Assembly: GCA_002256025.1 (NCBI GenBank)
Contig: NKIB01000089.1
Coordinates: 1 to 35,362 of the forward strand
Source: Asterionella formosa
Lineage: Eukaryota
Reading direction: 5' to 3'
Length of the DNA: 35,362 nucleotides
Shown: positions 2,618 to 35,362 of the stretch, one piece after another
Layout of the letters: each line of letters begins with the position of its first letter
Position numbering within the stretch: the first letter of the stretch is position 1
Position numbers and translations under genes: made by a program
The notes under the pieces: generated by a model
Databases searched by the model: none
What the model was told of the DNA's origin: nothing
The model's input: only the letters and a program-made list of their open reading frames with translations

Positions 2618-3321
2618 TCAATCGCAATATATACCCTTTACCTCGAATACAAACTATTCTCATTAAACGTTCTGGACATGTATTTTTCACCAAATTGGAT
2701 GTTTCTATGCAATACTATACTTTCGCATTAGATGTGGAGAGTCAAAATTTGTGCGATATTTCAAATCCATTTAGTTTTTATAAATATTGACGTCTCCCTA
2801 ATGGGGGTGAAACAATCATCCGACATTGCACAAGAAAATATGGAACCGTTTCTTAGTGATTTAGATAATGTGGAAATTTATATGATGTGGGTCATTTATT
2901 GGACACTATTTTACATCGTTTACAGGCAAATGGTTTTACAATTAATCTAATTAAGTGTGAATGGACAGTCCAAGAAACAGATTGGTTAGGCTATTGGTCA
3001 ACTCCTAATGGACTGAAAAGTTGGACTAAAAAATTCCGAGCATTGATTAATATGTCTTCACCCACCAATCTTAAACAAGTCAGATCATTTCTTGGTGCTG
3101 TTGCGTACTATCGAGACATGTTTCCTTGACGATCTCATGTTCTTGGACCACTTACAGATTTAATTGGAACTAGTCCATTTGTCTGGTTACCTATACATCA
3201 ACAAGCCGTTGAAGAAATGAAAGCATTGTAAGTTGCAGATACACTCATGCGTTATCCTGATCATAATCTTCCTTTTCATATATTTACTGATGCCTTTGAT
3301 TAACAATTAGAGTCGGTCATT

Positions 3322-4179
3322 ATGCAAAATGATCTCCCAGTTGCTTATTATTCTCGCAAATTATCTGCTGCTCAAAAGAATTATACTACTATTGAAAAAG
3401 AATTACTTGCTGTGGTAGAAACTTTCAAAGAATTTCGCTCTATGTTATTGGGTGCAGTTCTACATGTTCATCCTGATCATCGAAATCCAATTTATAATAC
3501 TTTACATACTCAACGTGTTCTAAGATGGAGACTTTATATTGAAGAATATCATCCTACTTTTCACTATGTGAAAGGGACTGACAATGCTATTGCAGATTCC
3601 ATCTCTCGTCTCCCGAGGCTTGAGTCTTTGGTGGGGGATGATATTGGACCGAAATCTCCAGCATCAACATCCACTTGTACTTTTTCAATTGAATTAGATG
3701 ATGAACCTTTGCTTACCTGTTTCCTCAATCATCCTATCTTGACAGACAATATTCAATATCCTCTGGATTATAATTTAATACTTAATGGACAATTGCTGGA
3801 TATACAATTGATTCTCAATCAACAAACACATCCGTTAAAATTTCCCTCTATCAATTTTCATGATTTATATTTAATAAGTTTTGTGAAGAATCCAGGAGAT
3901 ACTTGGCGTTTTGCTATTCCTACATCACTATTGGATCCTATTATTAATTGGTATCATCAGATGTTAGCTCATGTGGGTATGACAAGATTAAATGCTGCAA
4001 TTGCTACACATTTTTATCACCCTACATTAAAAGCAAGAGTGGAACATATTGTAAGAGTATGTGAAGCATGTCAACGTGCAAAATTACCTGGTACTGGTTT
4101 TGGTGAACTTCCACCCAGGAATGCATTGTTATTACCATGGTCAGAAGTCGCAGTAGAATTAATTGTCCATGAAAGATAA
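3322..4179 (+). pseudogene. Gypsy pol fragment: RNase H plus integrase zinc-binding domain
   Basis: Longest surviving ORF (285 aa) with RNase H motifs, DHRN..Y, RVLRWRLYIEEY, KGTDNAIADSISR and the H2C2 integrase motif. Confidence 0.9.
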
Positions 4180-9661: not shown

Positions 9662-9931
9662 ACCAATATGTTGCACAGATATTTTTGTATGTAAACGTAT
9701 GTACACAATTGATTTGAATTTAAATCATGCCCATCATAGGGATATCTCTATATGAACCGGTAGCACACATATTTTTGCATTCAAACGTACGTACCAGTAT
9801 ACGATTGATTTGAATTTAAATCATGTCCATCAATGTGATACCTTTATACCGGTATGTTGCACAGATATTTGTATGTAAACGTACTACGTGTACGATTGAT
9901 TTGAATTTGAATCATGCCCATGATAGGGATA
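9662..9931. repeat. Tandem repeat, about 92-95 bp x3
   Basis: Repeated GCACAGATATTT..TAAACGTA..ATTGATTTGAATTT(A/G)AATCATG(C/T)CCAT starting near 9667, 9759 and 9851. Confidence 0.9.
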
Positions 9932-9974
9932 GGATTAGGTAGTGACTTTGGTATACCGGTATCTAAAAAGGTGA

Positions 9975-10231
9975 TTGAGGGTACGCAATATCACGTAGTC
10001 ATACAACAATGTGGCATTGGTATCTGTTGGTGATGAAGGGGACGCAATAACACTTTCTTGTACAAACAAGGTGACATTGGTATCTATTGTCACCTCGTAC
10101 TCAGGCTACAACACGTTCTTGTACAGACAAGGTGATGACATTGGTATCTATTGGTGACGGAGGGGACGCAATAACACGTTGTTCTCGTACAAACAAGGTG
10201 ACATCGATGTCTATTGTCACCTCGTACTGAG
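9975..10231. repeat. Tandem repeat, about 60 bp x4 in A-B-A-B order
   Basis: Core ACAAGGTGACATTGGTATCTATTG followed alternately by GTGA..GGGGACGCAATAACAC or TCACCTCGTACT.AGG. Confidence 0.9.
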
Positions 10232-10632
10232 GTTAAAAGTAAGATCAAACGAGCTAAAAGTTGTTATCTGTGATCTTATTTATTGGCAATAATATCTAAC
10301 CAGAAAGTATGATCTGTAATATTTTAGTAGTAAGATATATTCATGTTAAAAGTAAGATCAAAAAAGCGAAAGATTGTTATCTGTGATCTTATTTATTGGC
10401 AATCGTTTCTAACCAAAGTATGATCTGTAATTTTTTAGTAGTAAGATCAATAAAGCTAAAAATTGTTATCTGTGATCTTATTTATTGGCAATCGATTCTA
10501 ACCAAAGTAAGATGTGTAATTTTTTATTAGTAAGATATATTCATGTTAAAAGTAAGATCAAAAAAGCGAAAGATTGTTATCTGTGATCTTATTTATTGGC
10601 AATCATTTCTAACCTGGAGGTATGATCAGTAA
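10232..10632. repeat. Tandem repeat, about 95-113 bp x4
   Basis: AGTAAGATCAA..TTGTTATCTGTGATCTTATTTATTGGCAAT..TCTAACC units starting near 10232, 10345, 10440 and 10545. Confidence 0.95.
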
Positions 10633-23812: not shown

Positions 23813-24439
23813 ATGGCTGGTGTTTCCCAGAATGCACAAAGAAAAGCTTGGAACGAAGCCATGCGATCGGCAGCAGGTGCTTCCGCTTTGCCTGCAGCGC
23901 TTCAGACTAAACTTTCAGCGAGGCGATCGGATCGACGCAAGCAAGCCAGGCGCGAAAAGGCTCGCAAGGTAGCAGTCATGGGTGACGAAGAATTCAGATC
24001 AGCAGTCTGGATGGATGCTCTTGAAGAAGTCGATACCGCGGCTGCCGCGGTTGACGAGGAAGAAGAATATGACGAACTGGATGAACTTGACAACAAGCGG
24101 AAACGTCGCAAGACGACGCATAAAACAAAGGCAGGCATTTTACCAAAAAGATTTAAGACGCGATCATTTGCCTCAATATTGCTGGAAGAATCTGCACGAG
24201 ATGATGGCATATCAACAGATTTTCTAAATGCTGAAGCGAGATTATCGGAGCCATTACCGAGACGAAGATTTTGTCCAGTAACTGGTCAGCTGGGTATATA
24301 TGTTGATCCGAAGAGTGGTGTCCCATTTGCAAACTTGAAGGCTCTGGAGCAGATCCGGGAGCGAGCGCCACCATGGATGACACTTGGAGGAACAGCTGCC
24401 TTTCATGAAGCCATCAAGTCGTTGAGGCAAGAAGAGTAA
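23813..24439 (+). CDS. SWR1/INO80 chromatin remodeller subunit (Swc6/Ies6-like) with YL1_C-type domain
   Basis: ATG at 23813 (MAGVSQ); RRFCPVTGQLGIYVDPKSGVPFAN matches YL1_C; upstream DALEE, acidic and basic tracts, RSFASILLEE. Confidence 0.85.
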   Translation: MAGVSQNAQRKAWNEAMRSAAGASALPAALQTKLSARRSDRRKQARREKARKVAVMGDEEFRSAVWMDALEEVDTAAAAVDEEEEYDELDELDNKRKRRKTTHKTKAGILPKRFKTRSFASILLEESARDDGISTDFLNAEARLSEPLPRRRFCPVTGQLGIYVDPKSGVPFANLKALEQIRERAPPWMTLGGTAAFHEAIKSLRQEE

Positions 24440-26699
24440 GAATGTCATATTCTTGTTAAGGCGACGATTTTTGAAAAACGCATGGATCCAGAAGGCACTC
24501 TTAGATCAGGATAGTCTTCGTTAAATGTGCATCATTTGGGAACTGTGCACCAAGGTGGTTGGTCCATTATTTTAAAATTAATATATTGTTATTCTACCAT
24601 ATCAGCACATAGTAAGTATTAGGCTGTCTATGCGCGAACTTTGTGCTCAAATTTAGCATTAAATCAGGCAAAGGTTTGATTAATGAAACTTTTTATAATG
24701 AGCGAATCCTTGGATGATCCTTGTATCAGCTGCCGTAAAACGGTGATAATCTATTAAGTGCAGAAGGCAATTCCATTTTCACCATCATCCTAAATGCCCA
24801 GGCGGATGTTAACTGTGTTCATTGAAGACTCGAATACCGATTCATCGTCAAATTGATGTGGCTGGTTGGTTGTTAAATCACTCGACTCCTGATGATATTT
24901 GTAGCATTGCATCATGCTTGCTTTGTTGTGGTGGCATTCGGTTCCTTTCACTACTGATTCCTGAATGCACTTCCGATCAACAATTTGCTAGCTTTGATTG
25001 ATACTGATGAATCAGTTGATGATTCTTGAATATTGATTTTGATTGGTCATTTCAGATCATAATTTAAAGGCTACAGTAAGTCCAATTTAGTTTTCCGTCG
25101 TCTTGGTTTAGTTTTTAGAATGTTTCTATACATTTATCGGAATCGGATATCAGATCTCAGATGGAAGTTTAAGTGCTGTTCTGTTGGCACAACAGTATTG
25201 CGTCATGTCTTCTTATTACAATATTACTTTTGATACTTTTCTGTTATCATTTACTATGACTGCAAACTGGAAGAAAATAAATCCCAACTGTCAATCTCCA
25301 AGTCTGGCAATGTCCCCTTGGACTAGCGCCTAGAGTCACCATGTATGTTGAACTGACACCGGGTGAGTTTTCCTTTTCTTAAGCTCAGGTTTCGTTTGCC
25401 AGGAAGCGCCACGAGGCTTCTCTATCAAATATAGAGTAACATTAAGCGTGTAATAAATTCACTTACTAAAATTCTCCAAGTCTGACAAGCAGCAAAAGGA
25501 GCATGACGTGAACTGGTATCCTGATTTAAATCGCACTTCAAAAGAAATAAAAGAAAGTTAATGATTGTTGATGAGCATTGCATCTTCAGCTTTTGGTCCC
25601 TATGTTATTGCTTGTCCATGGCCAATGCCTTGTCATTTGAATATCATAATGATCGACACAAAGAGATACATTTCAAATCAAGCTGACTGCACTAAATTCA
25701 GGTACAGTTATCATGGTTCAAGGCATTTCTGTTTAATTATGTGCATCAATATATTCCATGGGCCAATGATTCAGGCTGCTCTCAAAAATTTGCACCACCA
25801 TCAAGACATCACCGCACTAGAACCACCAAACATCTGCAATCATGCTGTTGCCCCTCGCTCGATGAACACCACAACTGCTTGCTTCATCACATGCTCCCTC
25901 CAAGAAAATTCATTGATCTGTTACTGCTCTACCCGGTCCGATTTGTCTATTTCATTAATTTATGTTGACAAGGACCAAAAATTATAAGTTGACAATTGTT
26001 AGTTCACATGCATAGACAATCATTCACAAAAATTGTATAGTAACCCATTTTTGATGTCAGTGTTTTTCTATTACCCCCTGATCTTGTTCGTTATTGCTAC
26101 TTACCTTTCATTTTCAATTTCATTCTTTGGTTAAATTATAAAAAATTCGTAATTGTTTGACATATGTTACAATCATTATTTGTGAGATTATGCAGTATAT
26201 TTAATCGTGAGTCTTGCATTCTTAAATTTTCCAATTGCAAAGATGTATTTGTTCAACGTCATTTTGCGATGTCTGATATGTATCAGATGAGGCATCATGT
26301 GACTGCATCACATTAAGTACACTACTATATTCATTAGTATGCAACAATTTAACACATATTCGCTTTTCGGGAATCGTTATTCCATTATTTAGGCATTAAG
26401 AATCAATATCAGGTCTAGCTAGCAGTATCAAGATCAAGAAATGTGGTATTGTAGAATTGTTCAGAATTTTTAAGATCTACTCATGGCCATTCATGGTCAA
26501 GGAATGTCGAGGCTTGTTATCATCTAGTCAGAAGTTTCTAAAGCATCTATCACTACTACAGAATCCAGGCTTGCTTTGTACATATATAGACAGGAAGAAT
26601 GGTTTTAGTCATTTGCGGAGTTTTGGCTTCGTGGAGTTCTATTGGAGTGACCCCTCCTCTAGTCTTGGTTAATTACCTGATGGGCATTTAATTTGATCA

Positions 26700-27832
26700 C
26701 AATTTATTGAAAGATACTTTTAGATTGGCTTGCTTTTTGTTTGTTTATTTGTTGTTGTCATGAGCAAATCCCTTCGATCTTTGGAAAGTGTACATTCCAA
26801 AACCTACATTCTTGAATATGGAGAAGGGCGGAATCAACCGACTGTGTATGGTACCACATCAAGAGCAAATACCAGGATGATCAATTGTTGGGATTAAAAA
26901 TACGGAATGACTCGTCCCCTTTCAATGATTCAATAGCTCCTTTTGGATTTGGTGGCCAACCATCAATGTGGACAAAAGAAATCGGTAAGTGCTATCATCT
27001 TTGGATCAATCCACGACTGTTTGAAAAACTGACACATGTGTGTAGCTTCTTTCAGGATAATGGTAGACAAACAGTATTTGAAGGTTACAAACAACAGTGT
27101 TGCTTGGAGCCCATTTATTGATCGATACTTTCTCATTCAATCTTCAACTGACACATTCTTTTACAGAAATATGCATCAGTTACTTCCTCAATTTGTGGTA
27201 AGTGAAGATAGAAGCGAAATGCATGTTGTTGTGGAAGCAAAACATGAACAGCTAACAATGAACTGCTTCTCTTTGCTAGTATGATTGGGAAAACGAAACG
27301 GATTAGATAGTAATGGGAAAATGAATGCGAATTCAGAACCGTCAGGAGTAAAAGGAAAGCATGGGAACAAGGGCAAGGCAACCAGTGCAACAACATTCAG
27401 AATTGGATTGGGGTGAAGGTGGAAGTGAAAGCACCAATCATTGCAATGAGAGAATTGTTTAACATTCTGTAGCCACTCAAGATATAGAAACATAAAACCA
27501 TTTTTAAACATAATTCTAAACTTCGATCAAATTCATCTTATTTTAGACAGTGATTTCGATGTGAATTACGATCATGTTAAGATAGACGATGTATGACAAA
27601 AGTATACACATCATAGGCCCATGTTTAACTAATTATATGATACAATGGTATTATAACTATGATCATATCATCAGACTTCAAGCTTGGTTAAAGTTTACTG
27701 CATGATCATAATTATGTGATACATTGATCATATTTTTGATCCAAAAACTATCATATACTAAGTAAAAATCCTGTGCCACTTAGCGTACGATGCCCTTGAT
27801 CCTATATGCATGATTGTTTTTATTTGCAGACG
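26700..27832. mobile_element. Diverged second copy of the 9289-12142 TIR element (right part; left boundary not found)
   Basis: Shared blocks in the same order: GATCAATTGTTGGG, CTGACACATGT, CTTTCAGGATAAT, AACTGACACATT, TAGAAACATAAAA, TGA.AAAAG.ATA.ACATCATAGG, AAAAT.CTGTGCCA and terminal TATTTGCAGACG. Confidence 0.8.
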
Positions 27833-28301
27833 ATGTTAACCCTACAATATTGTCCCTCCAAGTGGTAAAGTGGTTGACTTCTACAGAGGAGTGAACTGTC
27901 AATTCAAAAGTGCCTGATGCAACCTTGACCCAACCTCTTCTTCATTGCCAAGAATGTTTCCCCTGCATCTTTGTCTCCCAATTACTGTTATGTCGCTAAT
28001 TTTCTTGACAACACTGTCAAAAAGTGCACTTTAGGGGTGCAAGGATGCATTGACTTGGAGTAGGCAATGATGTGATGGAAAAGTGTCACGACTAGCTAAT
28101 TGATTCAATTTGATCAGGAGAAAAAGGTGATACAAGGCGCCCAGACGGACATTTTAACAGTTACTAGAATATTCAATTGGATTGTTGATGAATGATCTAT
28201 GTATTAAGTCTAACATCGGCCTGATCCTGGTGTTGCCTCTTTCATGGTTCAAACCGACATGATCATCAATTGGACTATTCACCGCAGCCAGGTTCCCATT
28301 C

Positions 28302-28337
28302 CATGATGCCCATCATGCCCATCATGCCCATCATGCC
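28302..28337. repeat. 9-bp tandem repeat (CATCATGCC) x4
   Basis: CATGATGCC CATCATGCC CATCATGCC CATCATGCC; reads GMM repeats on the minus strand. Confidence 0.9.
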
Positions 28338-29184
28338 AATAGTAATATTTAGAGGTGAAGTCCATAACACCAAGGGAATCCGAAAAACAAAAGCTCATGA
28401 TTTGAGCATACTTCGAGATGCCCATTAAGTCCTGACAGCCGGTATATCACATACACCACTCACTGAGATGCCATTTTAGCGTCCAAAGTTTTTCATTAAT
28501 TTTCCTCAGCATCGAACAATTCTTCTGTAGTTACCTGTCATCTTCAGGCATGTAGTTGACATAGCTCTATTTACCTGGCCTTCCTTGTCCTAGAACCTCC
28601 AGGGGGCAGCTTTGCAACTGTGTGCCTCTCCGATTGTTGTGTTCTTGAATTTCGGTCCATACCACATCACGTTCTCAATTCCATCCGCTTATCCTCAACC
28701 ACCTCTTCCTTTGCATGGCAGTCGAGAAGCGTGGTGGTAACATTCGTTTTAGACTCTTACGGTACCTTTCTCGACAATTCGCAACATTTCCGTTCACAAA
28801 TATTCTTCACTCTAACTACCATTAATTCTGTTTGTTCGCTCCCATTTTATCTTTACTTTGATCACATTAATACCTCAAGGTTAAACAAATATATATGCTA
28901 GTCAAACAAATAATTATGTGTAGCCAATTCATTTTTTCAATTTCATTCTACAATCGCAAAATCAATCAAATTAATCGCTTCGCTATATAGTTTATATAAA
29001 TACTTTCTATAAAAAGCGATTCTCAAACCAATAAGACAAGCAATGGATGTTCATTCTTGCAGCTGGATGCTCTAACTAATAGCAAGATTGTTTGGCTAGT
29101 ACTCATAGTACTTGTAGGAATCCCTGTTACTACTACCAATAGATCAATTCATAGCAAATGAGCTGGCTGCTCATTCTCATTGCT

Positions 29185-29860
29185 TGGATTGATTGTCTTT
29201 TGTAGAAAGAGACGAGAAAAATTTACAGAGTGAGTTGATGAGAAAAACAAAAGTTGCGAAGCCATGATTTCGGTTCTGCTGTGCTCCTTACCATGTTCCC
29301 CAATGGCCAACCCAGCCCTCATCAAATTGATTGTCTGCGATCAGTGAACAACAATCGCAGAGTGAGTTCATCATGAACAAACAATCGTTACAAAGGCATC
29401 ATTTTCGTTGTGCTTACCATGCCGCCTGATTCCCAACAAATCTCTCGCTCAACAGATTGAATGTCTGTAGACAAAGAACAGCGTTTGCAGAGTAAGTTCG
29501 TGATCAACAAGCAAGTAAAAAGCACACAATCAAGCCCTTTTTATAATTCATTACAAATAGCAATTCATGCGCTAACAATTCCGAACAAAGACGAAGGATA
29601 ATAGGAGAGGAGATCCGCCCACAACAAGCAACCGCAAACAATATCGGCAGAAGCCAAGAAAACATTGCACTTGCTTGCCATGTATATAATTGTCCCCTTT
29701 GCACCAGAGGAATCGTTTCGACAATGCGAAAAACAAATGATTGATAGCCTGCCTGACACAGAGCACAACACATTTCATTCTTCCCAAGGTTCAACCCTGC
29801 CCTGCCAAAAACAGTTTGATTTACTGTAGGAAAAGAACAAGGTTCAGAGTAAGTTCATGA
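29185..29860 (+). repeat. Degenerate repeat of about 130 bp (three adjacent copies plus one) with splice-site-like cores
   Basis: TTGA.TGTC..AG..CAGAGT(G/A)AGTT cores near 29226, 29358, 29488 and 29845; CTTACCATG in two units. Confidence 0.7.
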
Positions 29861-31367
29861 CTGACCACTGTTCCAAATACAAACGGAACAAGCAAGGGGA
29901 AGAACGAAATGGAGGTAGAGGAAGTAAAACAACAATCAAACATAGTTCCGAACACAGTCAAAGAACACGATGGTGCAGAGCAACAAGAGGAGCGAAGAAC
30001 AACAACAATGTAACACATGACCTGTCTCCATTTTCCAACAAAATATTAACTGCTTACCAAATATTTCTCGAACTTTCAGATGCATCCTTTCTGTACTACT
30101 GACGAGGAATAACAAAACAATTGCCTGTCTGCTTCTTCCAGAACTGGCCCGCAACAGAGTCCTCGTTGCTTTTCTGGAAGCGAAGAACATGATTCACACA
30201 GTAAGATCATAGATGTTTAAACTCACACAAGACCTTTTTCCATTTCTTAACAAACAATGCATATTCAGTTCAAACGGAGGGCAAAGAACAAGCAAGAGAA
30301 TGGTATACAGCCAGAGTAACCACAATGCACCACCAGCCAGCTCCTTGTTTCCAACAATAAGATCCAAAGGGATAACAGCAGAAAAAACAGCGATAGCGAC
30401 AACGTCAACAACAACCACAATGCATAATGCATTTTACCGTCAAAGTGATATTTTGTTCCTTTACCACGTTCTAGCCAGCAGCTGCTTTCCATTAAAAGAA
30501 ACCTGGCGCGGACAGTCCCCCTCCTATACCTTCGCTTTGTACTAGCCATGTGTACATTCTACATAAGAAAAAGCTAGCGCGCAGTCTATGCTTTGTCAGT
30601 ATACTTTTTGGCAAGCAATGCAGACCTCACGAAAATCTGACAAACATGGTGAATCGTCAGGATTTTCAACGTTGTGATTTGCAAAGGGTTAGTACCAGTA
30701 ATGCCGCTAGATTGCACTACATAGGATGTCTGAATTAATTCAACTATTTATCTCACCTTTTCGGAGCGTCTACAAGCAAAACTACCGCTACAATGAAGAC
30801 TCTAACAAGGAAAATAGCTAGCTGTAGCAAATCTATCGAATATGCGAATTTCGTTACACAGAAATAGCTGTTGCATGTATTCGCGTTCATCTGATGATCA
30901 TGTCATTGTAGTCGGGCTCAGTAGAAAATAAGAGCTGCAACCAAAGCTATTTCTTTTCGGAAAGGCTACAATTGGTCTACAATGATTATTTTGTCAAATA
31001 AAATTCGGTTGACAAATCAAAGGATCAGAAACGTTGGTAGATATGTTTTATATACTGATACCCGTAGTTCTATAGAAAAAGGAGTCGCATACCGGTACTA
31101 TATTAGTGTTCATCGAATATTATTGTAGTCAGTCGAAAATGAGAGGTATTTCCGAGATAATTCAAATAGTCAACAGTGATATCTCTAGCAATTGGCTGGC
31201 ATTAGGGAAAGTAGCAATGGATGTATAGCTGTGTTAAATCGAACTGAATGAGATAATTTATTTTGTGGTTTTACAAATGATGGATCAAATATCTATATCG
31301 GCCGTTGTCTCTTTCTATTAAACAAATATCGGTACATAATCGCTATTTAATCGTGTTTTATCACCAG

Positions 31368-32935
31368 GAACGACGACAATTGCTGTTTGATATGTGGTAA
31401 GGGTCCATTTGTTTCCCTTAACCGTCATTACGCACATAGCCCCAAATGCGAAACAGCTGCTGAGTTGTTTTGTAAACCAGCAACTGGTCCAGACGACGGT
31501 CAGGAAGAATAATATGATGGATTTCATCAATCTCCACCATCACTTGCTGATGACTTTTCGTCGTCATTAAAGAAAAGGGCCAAAATGTGCGTGTCATGTT
31601 CAAACACTACACTTTGGCGATCATACCAATATATATGACATTGATCAAAAGAAGATGAAGAATATACAAGCGAAATAGTGGTACAGGATGAAACCAATAC
31701 TATTCCAGTTCTGAGCACCACAGGGATAAGGTTTTCCTCTGCCGATCCTGGTGGTATACCATTCTCACTTGGCGATGTCATGAAGTCTCGACTGCTTAGT
31801 CTTTTGCTCGGCACTTGTTCTCCTCTTTACATGTATGATCAAATCATGAATTTCTGCAGCACAGCTCAGGAAGCTGGATTCATTTTTGAATCTTGTCCTC
31901 CCAGGACGACCACTGTTCTGAAAGAATTTCAAAACCGATTTAATATGAGTTACTTAAATGCTCCAGGTGAAACAGGCCATATTGCATGATGGAAGACTGA
32001 TTTATGTTGTATGTTTTGATTTCATGGCTCAGGTTAAGAATCTCTTGACTAATGACACACTAATGTCACCAAAAAGTGTGTCATTTGATTTCGTCAATCC
32101 GTGTAAAGCACCACGACCCACCAGTGTCAGATCCGAATTTCACACTGGTACCTTGTGGATAGATGCCCATGAATAATTATGTTCTCAGCCAAATGACTTC
32201 CTTGTTCCACTCATGTTCTTTATTGACAAGCAAGACACACACGGTCGAAAAAGGAAAGTACACAATGGAGCCTGTCCTAATGTCACTTGGTATATTTACT
32301 ACCGATGTGAGAAATAAGGTCAATGCATCATGGCGGCCCATTGGATTGATCCCAAAGCTGACCTCATCATGTCTATCTGAAATCCAATCCCTAACCCCTG
32401 ATCAAAAGGAATCCGATTATCACTGTCTTTGGTGTGATTCTTGAGGGGGTCAAGAATGTCCAACAAGCTGGTGGATTCAAACACATTTTCAATTTTGGAG
32501 GCAATCAATTTACACTTAATGTGAAAGTTCCGGTTGTTCTAATTCTCGGTGATGCTGAAGGTTTAGATGGACAATGCGGGCGAAAGAAAAAATATCTGAA
32601 GACTGCCAGAATGTGTCATGAATGTGATTGTCCGTTTGATCAAATGGACAATCCATCTCATGAATGCAGTCCTGTAGGTCAGATTGATTACGGGGAACTA
32701 TTAATCCGGGGCATAAAAGATTTATTGGATAATGTGAGCCAAAGATTCATCTATCCCTTTTGGTATCAGTTGTGTTTTGGTGGCGATCCTCTTGGATTTT
32801 AATGGGCACGTTCCTCCTGAAAAACTCCATTCCATTCAAGAAGGAATAATGGATTACCTCATGGAGCTATATTCTTATATCATCGGGCGCCCCAAAACAG
32901 TGAAGGGTAATTCCAATCGAAAACTGTTTGAATTC
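31368..32935 (+). pseudogene. Plavaka/CACTA(CMC)-like transposase pseudogene, 3' truncated
   Basis: N-terminal C2HC finger CLICGKGPFVSLNRHYAHSPKC; then CFDFMAQVKNLL, EFHTGTLW, FID..KTHT..GKYTMEPVLMSLGIF..WRPIGLIP, VKVPVVLILGDAEGLDGQCGR..RMCHECDC and PPEKLHSIQEG. Frameshifted; ends abruptly near 32935. Confidence 0.8.
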
Positions 32936-33026
32936 AGCTTGTTGGTGTGCTTTGTTGGACACAGGTCTGGGTACCGGTTCGACATGATCCTTCTGGAGAA
33001 TAAGAAGTCCACCCTTCGTGACCTCA

Positions 33027-35362
33027 TTATCCTTCTTGTCGACCGCAGGCACCTCCTTCAGACTTGAGAAATTCCAAAGAAGGAACATCCTCTGAGAGAA
33101 TGGAACTATCTTCGTCGTCTTTGCCTTGCGGAATCACTCTGGTGATATGCTTGGTTGGAGGCACAGATTTCAGACCAGGTTGGACATGATCCTGCTGGAG
33201 GGAGATAGAATGTGGGAGCTTGATGATAGACCAGGTTTCACCTAAAGTTTCATCTGGGTTCCTATCTCGCTGGAGGGTCAGATGTGGACCCTTCTCGACC
33301 TGCTTATGATCCTTGCAGTTGACCCCAAGCAACTTCATATTCGATTTTTCAACAGACTTGAGAAATTCCAAAGAAGGACCAGCATCTGAGGCATCCTCTG
33401 AGGCGATGGAAATATCTTCTTCGTCTTTGCTTTGTCGATTAGCCTTGGTGGTGTGCTTTGTTAAGGCCACAGGTTTGAGGGCAGGGTCTAATACTGGAGG
33501 TGGTCGATGAACAAAAACCACAGTGGCATTGCCACTGTTTTCCTTACGCGCATTTTTCTCTGATTGAGCTGCTGATTCAAGAACTGAATCATGAGTATTT
33601 GAATCATAATTCTTGGTGCTCCGGTAAAATCTCAAGTGGACAGGATTTTTGACCGGACTAGAAATATTGTTAAGCAAAACTGGTGGAGTTTGGACCACAG
33701 CTTCTTTGGCCTTTACAATGTTCTTTTCCTTTGAAGAAATCAAGGTTTCTTGCTCGATGTTTTTACGCCCCTCATTGTTAATGTTGGTCAAAGGTGGTGA
33801 AGGTAGGACCTGAACATCAACAATTCTCTTGGAGTCAAACCTGTTGGAAACGCCAAAAGTAGGGTCTTGAAAACTGTGCATCCACTTTGCACTCTCTTCC
33901 ACACCCTTGTTCCCAGTGAGAGGCGACTTGCTATAATTTTTCGTCAAATCTTCATTTGACGATGGGGACAACACTCGTTCCGCATACTGCAAGCACTCCT
34001 GACGAAATTGGTGGTAGGCTGCATCAGCCTGATAGAGCAAGCTTGAAATATTTGCTGTGTTAGTGACACCCTTGAAACTACCTTGAGAGCTGAACCTTTG
34101 AGTGGTGATTACTCGGCGTGAAGCAAGAGTTCCTGCTAGGTCAAATTGTTTCGACCTTATCCCATGGTGGGACAGGATGAGTTCCAGCTTGATCGCATTC
34201 TGGTTACTTTTGTCGAAATTGACAACAGAAGGCAGTTCAGGATTGACACAATGGAGGAGGTCATTCTTTGAGGCAGCTGCCTTTGACTCACTACTATCAT
34301 CATCTGTTAGACTAATCACATCATTGTCCTTGGAAGAAATTCGTGATTTCTTGGAAATAGAACTAGAAGGGGGCCAGGTAGCCTTCGATCGTTTCTTGAT
34401 TATTGGCACAGCAACTTGTTGGGACTCCGGTTTGGAGACCAATTTGCTGGAGGTGGCAGCTGATTTGGAATCCGGTTTGGATACTTTTTTCCTGTTTATG
34501 GCAGCTGGTTTAGAGTCTGGTTTCGATACTTTTTTGCTGGGAATCGCGGCTGGTTTGCAGTCCGATTCAGATTCTTCGTAAGGATTAGTTACAGGCATTG
34601 ATGCAACATCTCGGCTCCTGGCTGTTGACTTCGCAGCGTTGTAAGCACCTGCCTTGGATGTGATGGCTTTGGTAGCATCATGCTTGGGAGTAGCCTTGGC
34701 AGAAGGCTTGAGTGCAACAGCTTTTGCAGCAACAGCTCTTGGAAGAGTCTTCATCCTCGTCTTTGCAGCTTTCTTTGGAACACTCTTCTGCAACACTCGG
34801 GATTGGGCCTGTGTTGATCCTGCTGTAACTATAGAAGCAGCCTTTTGCAAAGTGCCTCTCCTCGCACGCTTTCCGAGCGCATAAGAAGGCGCTTCCAAGC
34901 GGGCATACTCTGATCTGATAGCTGCCTTCGCATTCATCACCTCTGTCAGGCGATGAATGCAAAAATAGAAATGTGTGAATGAATAAATGAATATGAATAC
35001 AGCATATAAAGTAAACGAACATACCTTTTGGTTGCTTGTAGATGAAACCCCCAATGGGAAGAAACATCGAGTACACATAGGCTTGCTCTTCCAATTGATG
35101 ATCAAGAAGATCATAATGAGTGGCTGAAAGAAGACTCCCAGTTATATTTGTTCGCAAACGCACGATAGGAAAGGTCTCGAAATTTGCTGGTTCTGGCATA
35201 TCAGGTCCATAATTGTATGAATCAACATCGCCATCGTTCTTGTTCCTCTCATCATGAAGAAGGTTTTCAAGAGGATGATTGATCCTGTCCATCCAAGGAA
35301 TAGGATTGCAGTGTACAAATCCCAAGGATTTATACCACTCAACCGCATTGCCCAGCACCTGC
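33027..35362 (-). CDS. Large transposon-associated ORF (5' end outside window): GNAT-like motif, Lys/Ala-rich region, internal repeats
   Basis: complement(join(33027..34942,35025..>35362)); the GTATGT...ACAG intron at 34943-35024 joins KQPK-E-VMNAK in frame. Contains GNAVEWYKSLGF, KPDSKPAA repeats and two SLEFLKS repeats, with a frameshifted third repeat running to about 32936. Confidence 0.7.

Follow-up and report, generated by a model that had tools for sequence, protein, structure and literature searches.

Decayed copy of a Plavaka-lineage transposon in Asterionella formosa and a putative GNAT-like accessory gene of its intact relatives

Accessory genes are, to our knowledge, rare in eukaryotic DNA transposons, and those known act on DNA or histone methylation (TET/JBP, SET, N6-methylase, 2-oxoglutarate (2OG) oxygenases, VANC). 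In En/Spm, a CACTA element, the transposase TnpD is accompanied by a second element protein, TnpA, which is not known to bear a GNAT motif and is made from a single transcript through alternative splicing; subterminal arrays stand inverted at both ends, a hallmark of CACTA-type elements. The subject of this text is a stretch of 35,362 nucleotides from Asterionella formosa (GenBank assembly GCA_002256025.1, contig NKIB01000089.1, positions 1 to 35,362 of the forward strand; the whole stretch is called the window), and in it a transposon copy with a transposase relic and, on the opposite strand, a gene here named gene A. The segment 28758-35362, continuing past the window end, is read, at a probability of about 0.68, as one decayed, internally deleted copy of a large, high-copy Plavaka-lineage transposon whose intact copies carry gene A. 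A transposase, a second element protein and inverted subterminal arrays are shared with En/Spm; the two genes here are convergent and separate.

The giant Plavaka elements of red algae (PAG1-3; bioRxiv 10.1101/2025.02.11.637652) resemble the present element in the Plavaka-lineage transposase, the large size, the massive copy number with mostly degenerate copies, the presence of several accessory genes of chromatin- or DNA-modifier type, and repeat arrays adjoining an accessory gene, which are proposed there to be bound by its product. They are 17-19 kb long, against over 12.5 kb here, and carry accessory genes for an N6-adenine methylase plus SET protein and a ParB plus 2OG-oxygenase protein; in the present element a GNAT-like core with a basic tail is predicted instead, and no Pfam match of the red-algal kinds was obtained.

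In fungi, TET/JBP genes are carried by Plavaka and ten other lineages (PMC12730594). The present element has a transposase of the same family as PlavakaB with TET/JBP, with the same two motifs, C(2)C and H(3-4)H, and both are proposed to bear an enzyme of their own that counters epigenetic silencing; the fungal passenger is a dioxygenase acting on 5-methylcytosine (5mC), unlike the GNAT-like gene A. Two further systems would be similar in function: VANC of VANDAL is a transposon-encoded protein against silencing (PMC10398659), and the Harbinger-derived HDP1/HDP2 belong to the IDM1 histone acetyltransferase complex, with anti-silencing by acetylation as the effector (PMC5339849). In the latter the acetyltransferase is a host enzyme recruited by transposon-derived proteins, whereas here the element itself would encode an acetyltransferase-like domain. 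Judged by its sequence, the element belongs with those already known in which a Plavaka transposon bears an accessory gene of chromatin type. No description of a GNAT gene in an EnSpm, CACTA or Plavaka element was found in the literature searched; a 'GNAT' match in PMC9004415 proved to be the word 'gnathostome'.

A repeated element with a Plavaka-lineage transposase

The 112 exon-1 residues of gene A encoded in the window were used as query in a word-indexed protein search, in which three proteins matched among 190 candidates. One of these, P0003, agrees with all 112 residues (100% identity) and reaches 361 residues further upstream (90 members in its cluster at 90% identity, from several public sources); a metagenome scan with P0003 gave six loci out of 52 pattern matches, and these loci, L001 and L002 above all, supply the intact sequences.

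The intact transposase (P0021) is a 955-codon frame at L002:7040-9907, convergent to gene A. It passes the Pfam Plavaka model PF18759 at residues 214-500 (51.1 bits against a cut-off of 26.3, E 1.5e-13), and CRECDC and HQQMH, read in its sequence, fit the C(2)C and H(3-4)H motifs given for the EnSpm/Plavaka/Transib clade in PMC12730594. This likeness places the transposase in the Plavaka lineage (EnSpm/CACTA-related). In clustering at 90% identity it falls in a group of 179 members. In the window, the Plavaka-type transposase pseudogene lies on the + strand at 31351..32931; by tblastn, 31351-32932 aligns to residues 1-522 of the 955 in five pieces, in frames 1, 2, 3, 1 and 2, with at least four frame changes plus in-frame stops. 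The fragment reaches only 14.3 bits on PF18759; of the two motifs it retains C(2)C, as MCHECDC, and has lost the region of H(3)H to deletion. An earlier, preliminary description of the window, made from its letters, had seen here a Plavaka transposase relic facing a - strand open reading frame (ORF), and both are present.

A sister transposase family, P0034, shares 55% identity with P0021 across 96% of its length, bears the Plavaka Pfam tag and has 118 cluster members; a gene A-like fragment, P0028 (62% identity), may belong to the version of the accessory gene in that family.

L002 runs collinear with the window over 28758-35362, a span that takes in gene A and the transposase, and beyond 28758 the flanks are unrelated. 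At 28758 both read TACGGTAC(C/T)TTTCTC..., and a contig of run X3 has a loose end at the same position with letters equal to the L002 flank. Two insertion sites are therefore seen, since different flanks adjoin the same terminus. The element thus runs left to 28758, well beyond the start at 31368 that had been assigned to it at first.

Depth changes at the same place. In X1, a run which may be the source sample and contains 0.81 of the words of the stretch, zero-difference contigs of depth ~760-1150 lie over 24016-26888 and 27803-28641; summed depth then jumps from ~1.1e3 (bin 28169-28547) to ~5.6e5 (bin 28548-28926) and stays within 4.1e5-9.7e5 in all bins of 28548-35362, values that are summed over contigs, give no calibrated copy number and are taken for no more than an excess of several hundred-fold. 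Gene A (5.9e5-6.8e5 over 33096-35362) and the transposase (4.9e5-6.9e5 over 31201-32716) are alike in this respect, so gene A is not a single-copy host gene. That it should be such a gene, merely standing beside a transposon relic, is highly improbable, and nothing was found in favour of it: the flanking unique sequence is at ~1e3, and gene A and the transposase are neighbours again in a copy that is flanked differently. In all, 70193 contigs were aligned (16006, 27150 and 27037 in the 99+, 95-99 and 90-95% bands, respectively). The host occurs in freshwater, estuary and marine samples; runs X20-X24, with small word shares, were left out of the habitat naming.

L002 (12.9 kb) starts inside a ~194-bp tandem array (1-580), which recurs inverted at about 9910-10520, beyond the third ORF, gene A and the transposase. 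The inversion is seen in several collinear inverted matches (best, 31 nt at 87%, E 2.7e-4) and in shared blocks of a multiple alignment. Intact copies, over 12.5 kb in size, would thus carry three genes between inverted ~194-bp arrays: the 955-aa DDE transposase, the convergent gene A and a third ORF divergent from gene A. The earlier proposal that the ORF belongs to the transposon holds on three counts, namely collinearity in a copy with a different flank, equal depth excess, and a position between inverted arrays.

The third gene (L002:580-2542, - strand, divergent from gene A) consists of three ORF pieces of 216, 182 and 217 aa, which are probably exons. The pieces gave no Pfam match at E<=0.1, and their ESM Atlas neighbours were of no use; the middle piece is itself in the Atlas from residue 25 onward.

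Gene A and its likeness to GNAT acetyltransferases

On the - strand of the window an open frame, 35361-35025, leaves the window end; it starts QVLGNAVEWYKSLGF and forms the last 112 codons of exon 1 (35025..35362), with the GNAT motif-B-like AQVLGNAVEWYKSLGF at the start and the motif GNAVEWYKSLGF encoded at about 35352-35317. A GTATGT donor at 35024 and a CCTGACAG acceptor at 34943 bound a predicted intron of 82 nt in phase 1 (34943..35024, - strand; GTATGT...CCTGACAG), whose removal joins the exon 1 frame in phase to 34942-33027. Exon 2 in the window (33027..34942, - strand) is a damaged 638-codon frame with a basic region carrying 15-aa repeats, a middle part and C-terminal repeats. The basic region is Lys/Ala/Ser/Pro-rich with 45-nt (15-aa) repeats and contains the tract KKAAKTRMKTLPRAVAAKAVALKPSAKATPK...AKSTAR; in exon-2 residues 31-110 Ala makes up 25%, Lys 16% and Thr 11%, with pI 11.7 and net charge +16. 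Repeat units of ~300 nt lie near the 3' end, and the C-terminal repeats are acidic.

The 300 exon-1 codons that fall beyond the window end, including the motif-A-like YKERGMGQLL, were recovered from the metagenome loci: a 412-codon exon 1 starting MCDGFCPFE is present in L001, L002 and L003, and exon 2 is uninterrupted in L001 as an 893-codon frame ending ...DSDYESAL. If spliced as predicted, the intact product is probably about 1240 aa long, encoded in two exons. The motif, the predicted intron, the Lys/Ala-rich tract and the repeats, all listed in the preliminary description, are in the sequence, the intron with canonical signals, and the extension past 35362 proposed there yields the full ORF, intact in L001 with ~1240 codons.

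Splicing itself can be doubted. Gene A might instead be two genes, one for a ~530-aa GNAT-like protein reading into the 'intron' and one for a basic protein from the ATG of MNAKAAIR, two codons into exon 2. One contig of the X19 RNA library (record 16) spans 34915-35362 without a gap, i.e., with the intron unspliced, and the 35024-34943 joint is absent from the 15 of 36 joints listed for the contigs, which include two metatranscriptome runs covering parts of both gene A and the transposase. The RNA contigs, as far as listed, did not show splicing at the intron, for which RNA-seq had been proposed in the preliminary description; RNA libraries can contain DNA, and contigs lose rare forms. The GTATGT donor and the CAG acceptor restore the frame exactly, the predicted intron is nearly invariant in four of four aligned copies, and in the diverged P0005, P0024 and P0004 the interval varies in length while both flanking frames stay open. 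The division into two genes is accordingly held to be somewhat unlikely, and gene A is treated below as one spliced gene.

GNAT motif A reads Q/R-x-x-G-x-G/A and the C-terminal motif A-x-x-x-Y-x-x-x-G-F. Gene A has both in this order: the motif-A-like YKERGMGQLLIQAA lies, in the sequence recovered from metagenomes, about 36 residues upstream of AVEWYKSLGF, where about 30-40 are expected (KERGMG, AVEWYKSLGF), with Lys instead of Gln/Arg at the first position of motif A. In the terms of the superfamily, K-E-R-G-M-G is followed by LLxxA and, about 36 residues on, by A-x-x-x-Y-x-x-L-G-F; the difference lies in the N-terminal half of the fold, which is unrecognisable in gene A, and in the setting of the domain inside a 1240-aa orphan protein. 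Searched with residues 195-335 and 225-325, Acetyltransf_7 (PF13508) gave E 0.0056 and 0.0026 (17.5 and 18.6 bits, cut-off 27) and Acetyltransf_10 (PF13673) E about 0.09 (13.1-13.3 bits, cut-off 23.6). This GNAT-family pair makes up the only two matches of the sub-region among 24736 Pfam models, and the Acetyltransf_7 match covers profile positions 38-83 of 84, the acetyl-CoA-binding beta4-alpha3-beta5-alpha4 half. The ESM Atlas puts clusters of the GNAT clan, at 0.92-0.94, first among the neighbours of residues 195-335, and the ten best family-bearing matches are concordant in family or clan (10/10).

A number of results weigh against the reading of the segment as a GNAT-bearing element copy. 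No GNAT-clan Pfam model reaches its curated cut-off (best 18.6 bits against 27), and the whole protein P0003 has no Pfam match at E<=1 (Pfam gave nothing useful on P0001, P0002 or P0003). The Atlas shared-feature counts, 131-145 of 256, lie under the 170 typical of true family members, and one third of shuffled proteins likewise yield ten concordant matches. AlphaFold2 models (mean pLDDT 28.8 for 412 aa and 39.5 for 141 aa) are mostly helical and unusable; searches of PDB (phmmer/hmmsearch) and NCBIfam found no relative. The Arg of motif A (RGMG) is His in the diverged copies P0004 and P0020. On the side of the element, the depth excess is uncalibrated, as said above; only one terminus was seen, (TA)CGGTACC at 28758, with the boundary good to ~2 nt; and in L001, after the point matching L002 position 7006, 488 bp of unrelated sequence stand in place of the transposase. 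The unspliced X19 contig, and the substitution ratio of exon 2 given below, belong to the same side.

These results leave room for a gene A that is element-borne and no enzyme, its GNAT motifs being due to chance or degenerate, and that works like TnpA, as a structural or DNA-binding factor, by means of its basic and repeat-rich region. All of the GNAT evidence is below threshold and the structure models are of no use, the motif-A Arg is replaced in diverged copies, and the basic tract (pI 11.7) could find binding sites in the subterminal arrays, as in the two-protein precedent of En/Spm, where TnpA binds repeats. Such a factor is nonetheless judged unlikely, because the only two of 24736 Pfam models to match the sub-region are both GNAT and cover the acetyl-CoA-binding half, the independent language-model search gives families of the GNAT clan only, and the order and spacing of the motifs fit GNAT. 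Taken together, the sequence comparisons put the chance that gene A carries a GNAT-like fold at roughly two in three. The acetyltransferase proposed in the preliminary description is therefore upheld in part: motif A was found upstream, with sub-threshold Pfam matches and language-model neighbours, and no model reaches its cut-off.

The likeness to histone H1, also proposed there, survives at most as composition (basic, Ala-rich): no linker-histone domain was found by Pfam in P0002 at E<=1 or in the L002 continuation at E<=0.1. From the sequence, the H1 likeness of gene A is at most compositional; H1 tails are much more Lys-rich than its basic Ala-rich tract.

Against 1.84 billion representatives, phmmer with P0003 found no distant homologue, its 11 matches all being close fragments of 62-90% identity, so that by sequence gene A is an orphan with an N-terminal domain of no known family. 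Diverged gene A fragments are many in protein databases and several are frameshifted, as expected of decaying repeat copies, which is a further point in favour of gene A as part of the element. Frameshifted fragments (P0022, P0026, P0028 and P0031) would also suit a captured or transduplicated piece of a host gene of no service to the element, of the Pack-MULE or CACTA capture kind, as would the unrelated sequence and telomere-like end that gene A adjoins in L001. So would exon 2, in which the ratio of non-synonymous to synonymous substitution rates (dN/dS), window against L001, is 0.90 (7 synonymous, 21 non-synonymous), with no visible constraint; for the transposase, window against L002, it is 0.41 (21 synonymous, 32 non-synonymous). 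Neither ratio decides much on constraint, because the copies are dead and near-identical and the changes few. Capture is considered quite improbable, since no host-like parent or distant homologue turned up among the representatives searched, the ~1240-codon frame is open in L001, and gene A is preceded by an upstream region of its own and always stands at one place between the repeat arrays. An accessory gene proper to the element is the reading kept for gene A.

Proposed role of gene A

In the preferred reading gene A is an element-borne accessory gene whose product would combine a divergent GNAT-like, acetyl-CoA-binding core with a long, basic stretch of low complexity and with C-terminal repeats that are acidic. 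Through the basic stretch the protein would be anchored on DNA or chromatin, perhaps on the subterminal repeats of the element itself, in the manner of TnpA in En/Spm; a chromatin protein or the transposition machinery would be the substrate that the core acetylates; and acetylation would keep the element accessible or counter its silencing, favouring expression or mobility. Tethering, acetylation and anti-silencing are inferred as the most likely mechanism.

The farthest-reaching form of the proposal is that a Plavaka transposon of a microbial eukaryote that is neither a fungus nor a red alga encodes an active acetyltransferase fused to a basic chromatin-binding tail, a protein that would bind the subterminal arrays, acetylate local chromatin and so leave hundreds of copies transcribable. 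This form is doubtful and is put forward as a tentative possibility; if true, it would constitute a self-encoded, acetylation-based anti-silencing system of a transposon, with an accessory enzyme of a type that did not turn up in the literature searched. With an acetyltransferase-like, basic-tailed protein encoded in a transposon, histone or protein acetylation would join the means by which mobile elements manipulate host chromatin, and multi-gene Plavaka elements would be extended beyond fungi and red algae. The case is testable: intact copies of both genes are at hand, the family appears to be of very high copy number, and the arrays are possible binding sites.

The window copy, its termini and other repeats

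The left part of the window copy is a non-coding terminal arm, 28758..31350, with TACGGTACC at 28758 as the terminus. Short direct repeats at ~130-nt spacing (29226-29860) lie within it, and homologues of the ~194-bp subterminal repeat in or near it (about 30754-31364). The terminus seen, TACGGTAC, is unlike the published Plavaka termini CA.., TGT.. and CATCA.., as far as these are given in the available parts of the sources; the fungal ones are CATCA..TGATG (PlavakaB) or TGT..ACA (PlavakaA), with target site duplications of 2-3 bp (PMC12730594). Elsewhere in the window the terminal 15-mer has, besides its own site, two three-mismatch matches only, within chance.

The transposase and gene A converge, as the preliminary description had it in saying that they face each other, and their relation in the window goes further: the 3' ends are fused by a copy-specific 1.9-kb deletion with its junction at 32929..32931, L002 6410-8342 being absent. 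By blastn, the matches of L001, L002 and L004 all end at window 32929 and L002 restarts at 32931; contigs of X1, X3, X19 and X20 all cease to fit at window 32931. The deletion took the 3' ends of both convergent genes, i.e., ~434 C-terminal transposase residues and the end of gene A. Compared with the intact L001, gene A of the window has in addition a 17-nt deletion near 33061, which shifts the frame and gives rise to the stop at 33027-33029 in exon 2, and smaller deletions of 3, 21, 3, 3 and 2 nt. The window copy is dead and both its genes are pseudogenes; nothing in it is therefore active. For annotation, this segment of the window is a dead repeat copy and holds no host genes, and the object of interest is the intact family in the metagenome contigs, not the window copy.

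Divergence shifts at the deletion junction. The gene A side differs by 1.4% from L001 (28 mismatches in 2014 aligned bases), the arm by about 5% from L002 (131 in 2571), and the transposase has a synonymous divergence (dS) of 0.067. The step at 32929-32931 suggests a mosaic window copy or a junction between sequences of different history; recombination or gene conversion between copies, or the joining of two copies, is suggested as its origin. In the transposase relic, an extra in-frame TAA at 31508-31510, between ...GQEE and YDGF, is not in L002, and is recorded as 'left out 3' in contigs of four runs (X1, X3, X19 and X20).

In L001 the unrelated part lies in L001:6796-7303 and includes an ORF ending ...SDLSDSDDDSEQDLQALLKTKGGQNKA. 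The contig terminates exactly in GGGGTTTTGGGGTTTTGGGG (GGGGTTTT x2.5), a motif found neither in the window nor in the other five loci, which we take to resemble a telomere repeat of the G4T4 type. On account of this end, a ciliate with a variant code was considered and was rejected as the source of the element, because the 955-codon and ~1240-codon frames run without in-frame TAA or TAG and fit the standard code.

A repeat of ~0.9 kb at 26889-27830 has a summed X1 depth of up to 1.4e6, against ~1e3 in the unique flanks, and many loose ends; it is parted from the Plavaka element by the single-copy 27803-28641 and none of the six loci matches it by blastn, which leaves it without a link to the element. 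The window appears to hold mobile elements other than the Plavaka copy: further to the left, a 291-codon frame at 3304-4179 (+ strand) has the look, judged by eye, of a retrotransposon RNase H/integrase (YYSRKLSAAQKNYTTIEKELLAVV...).

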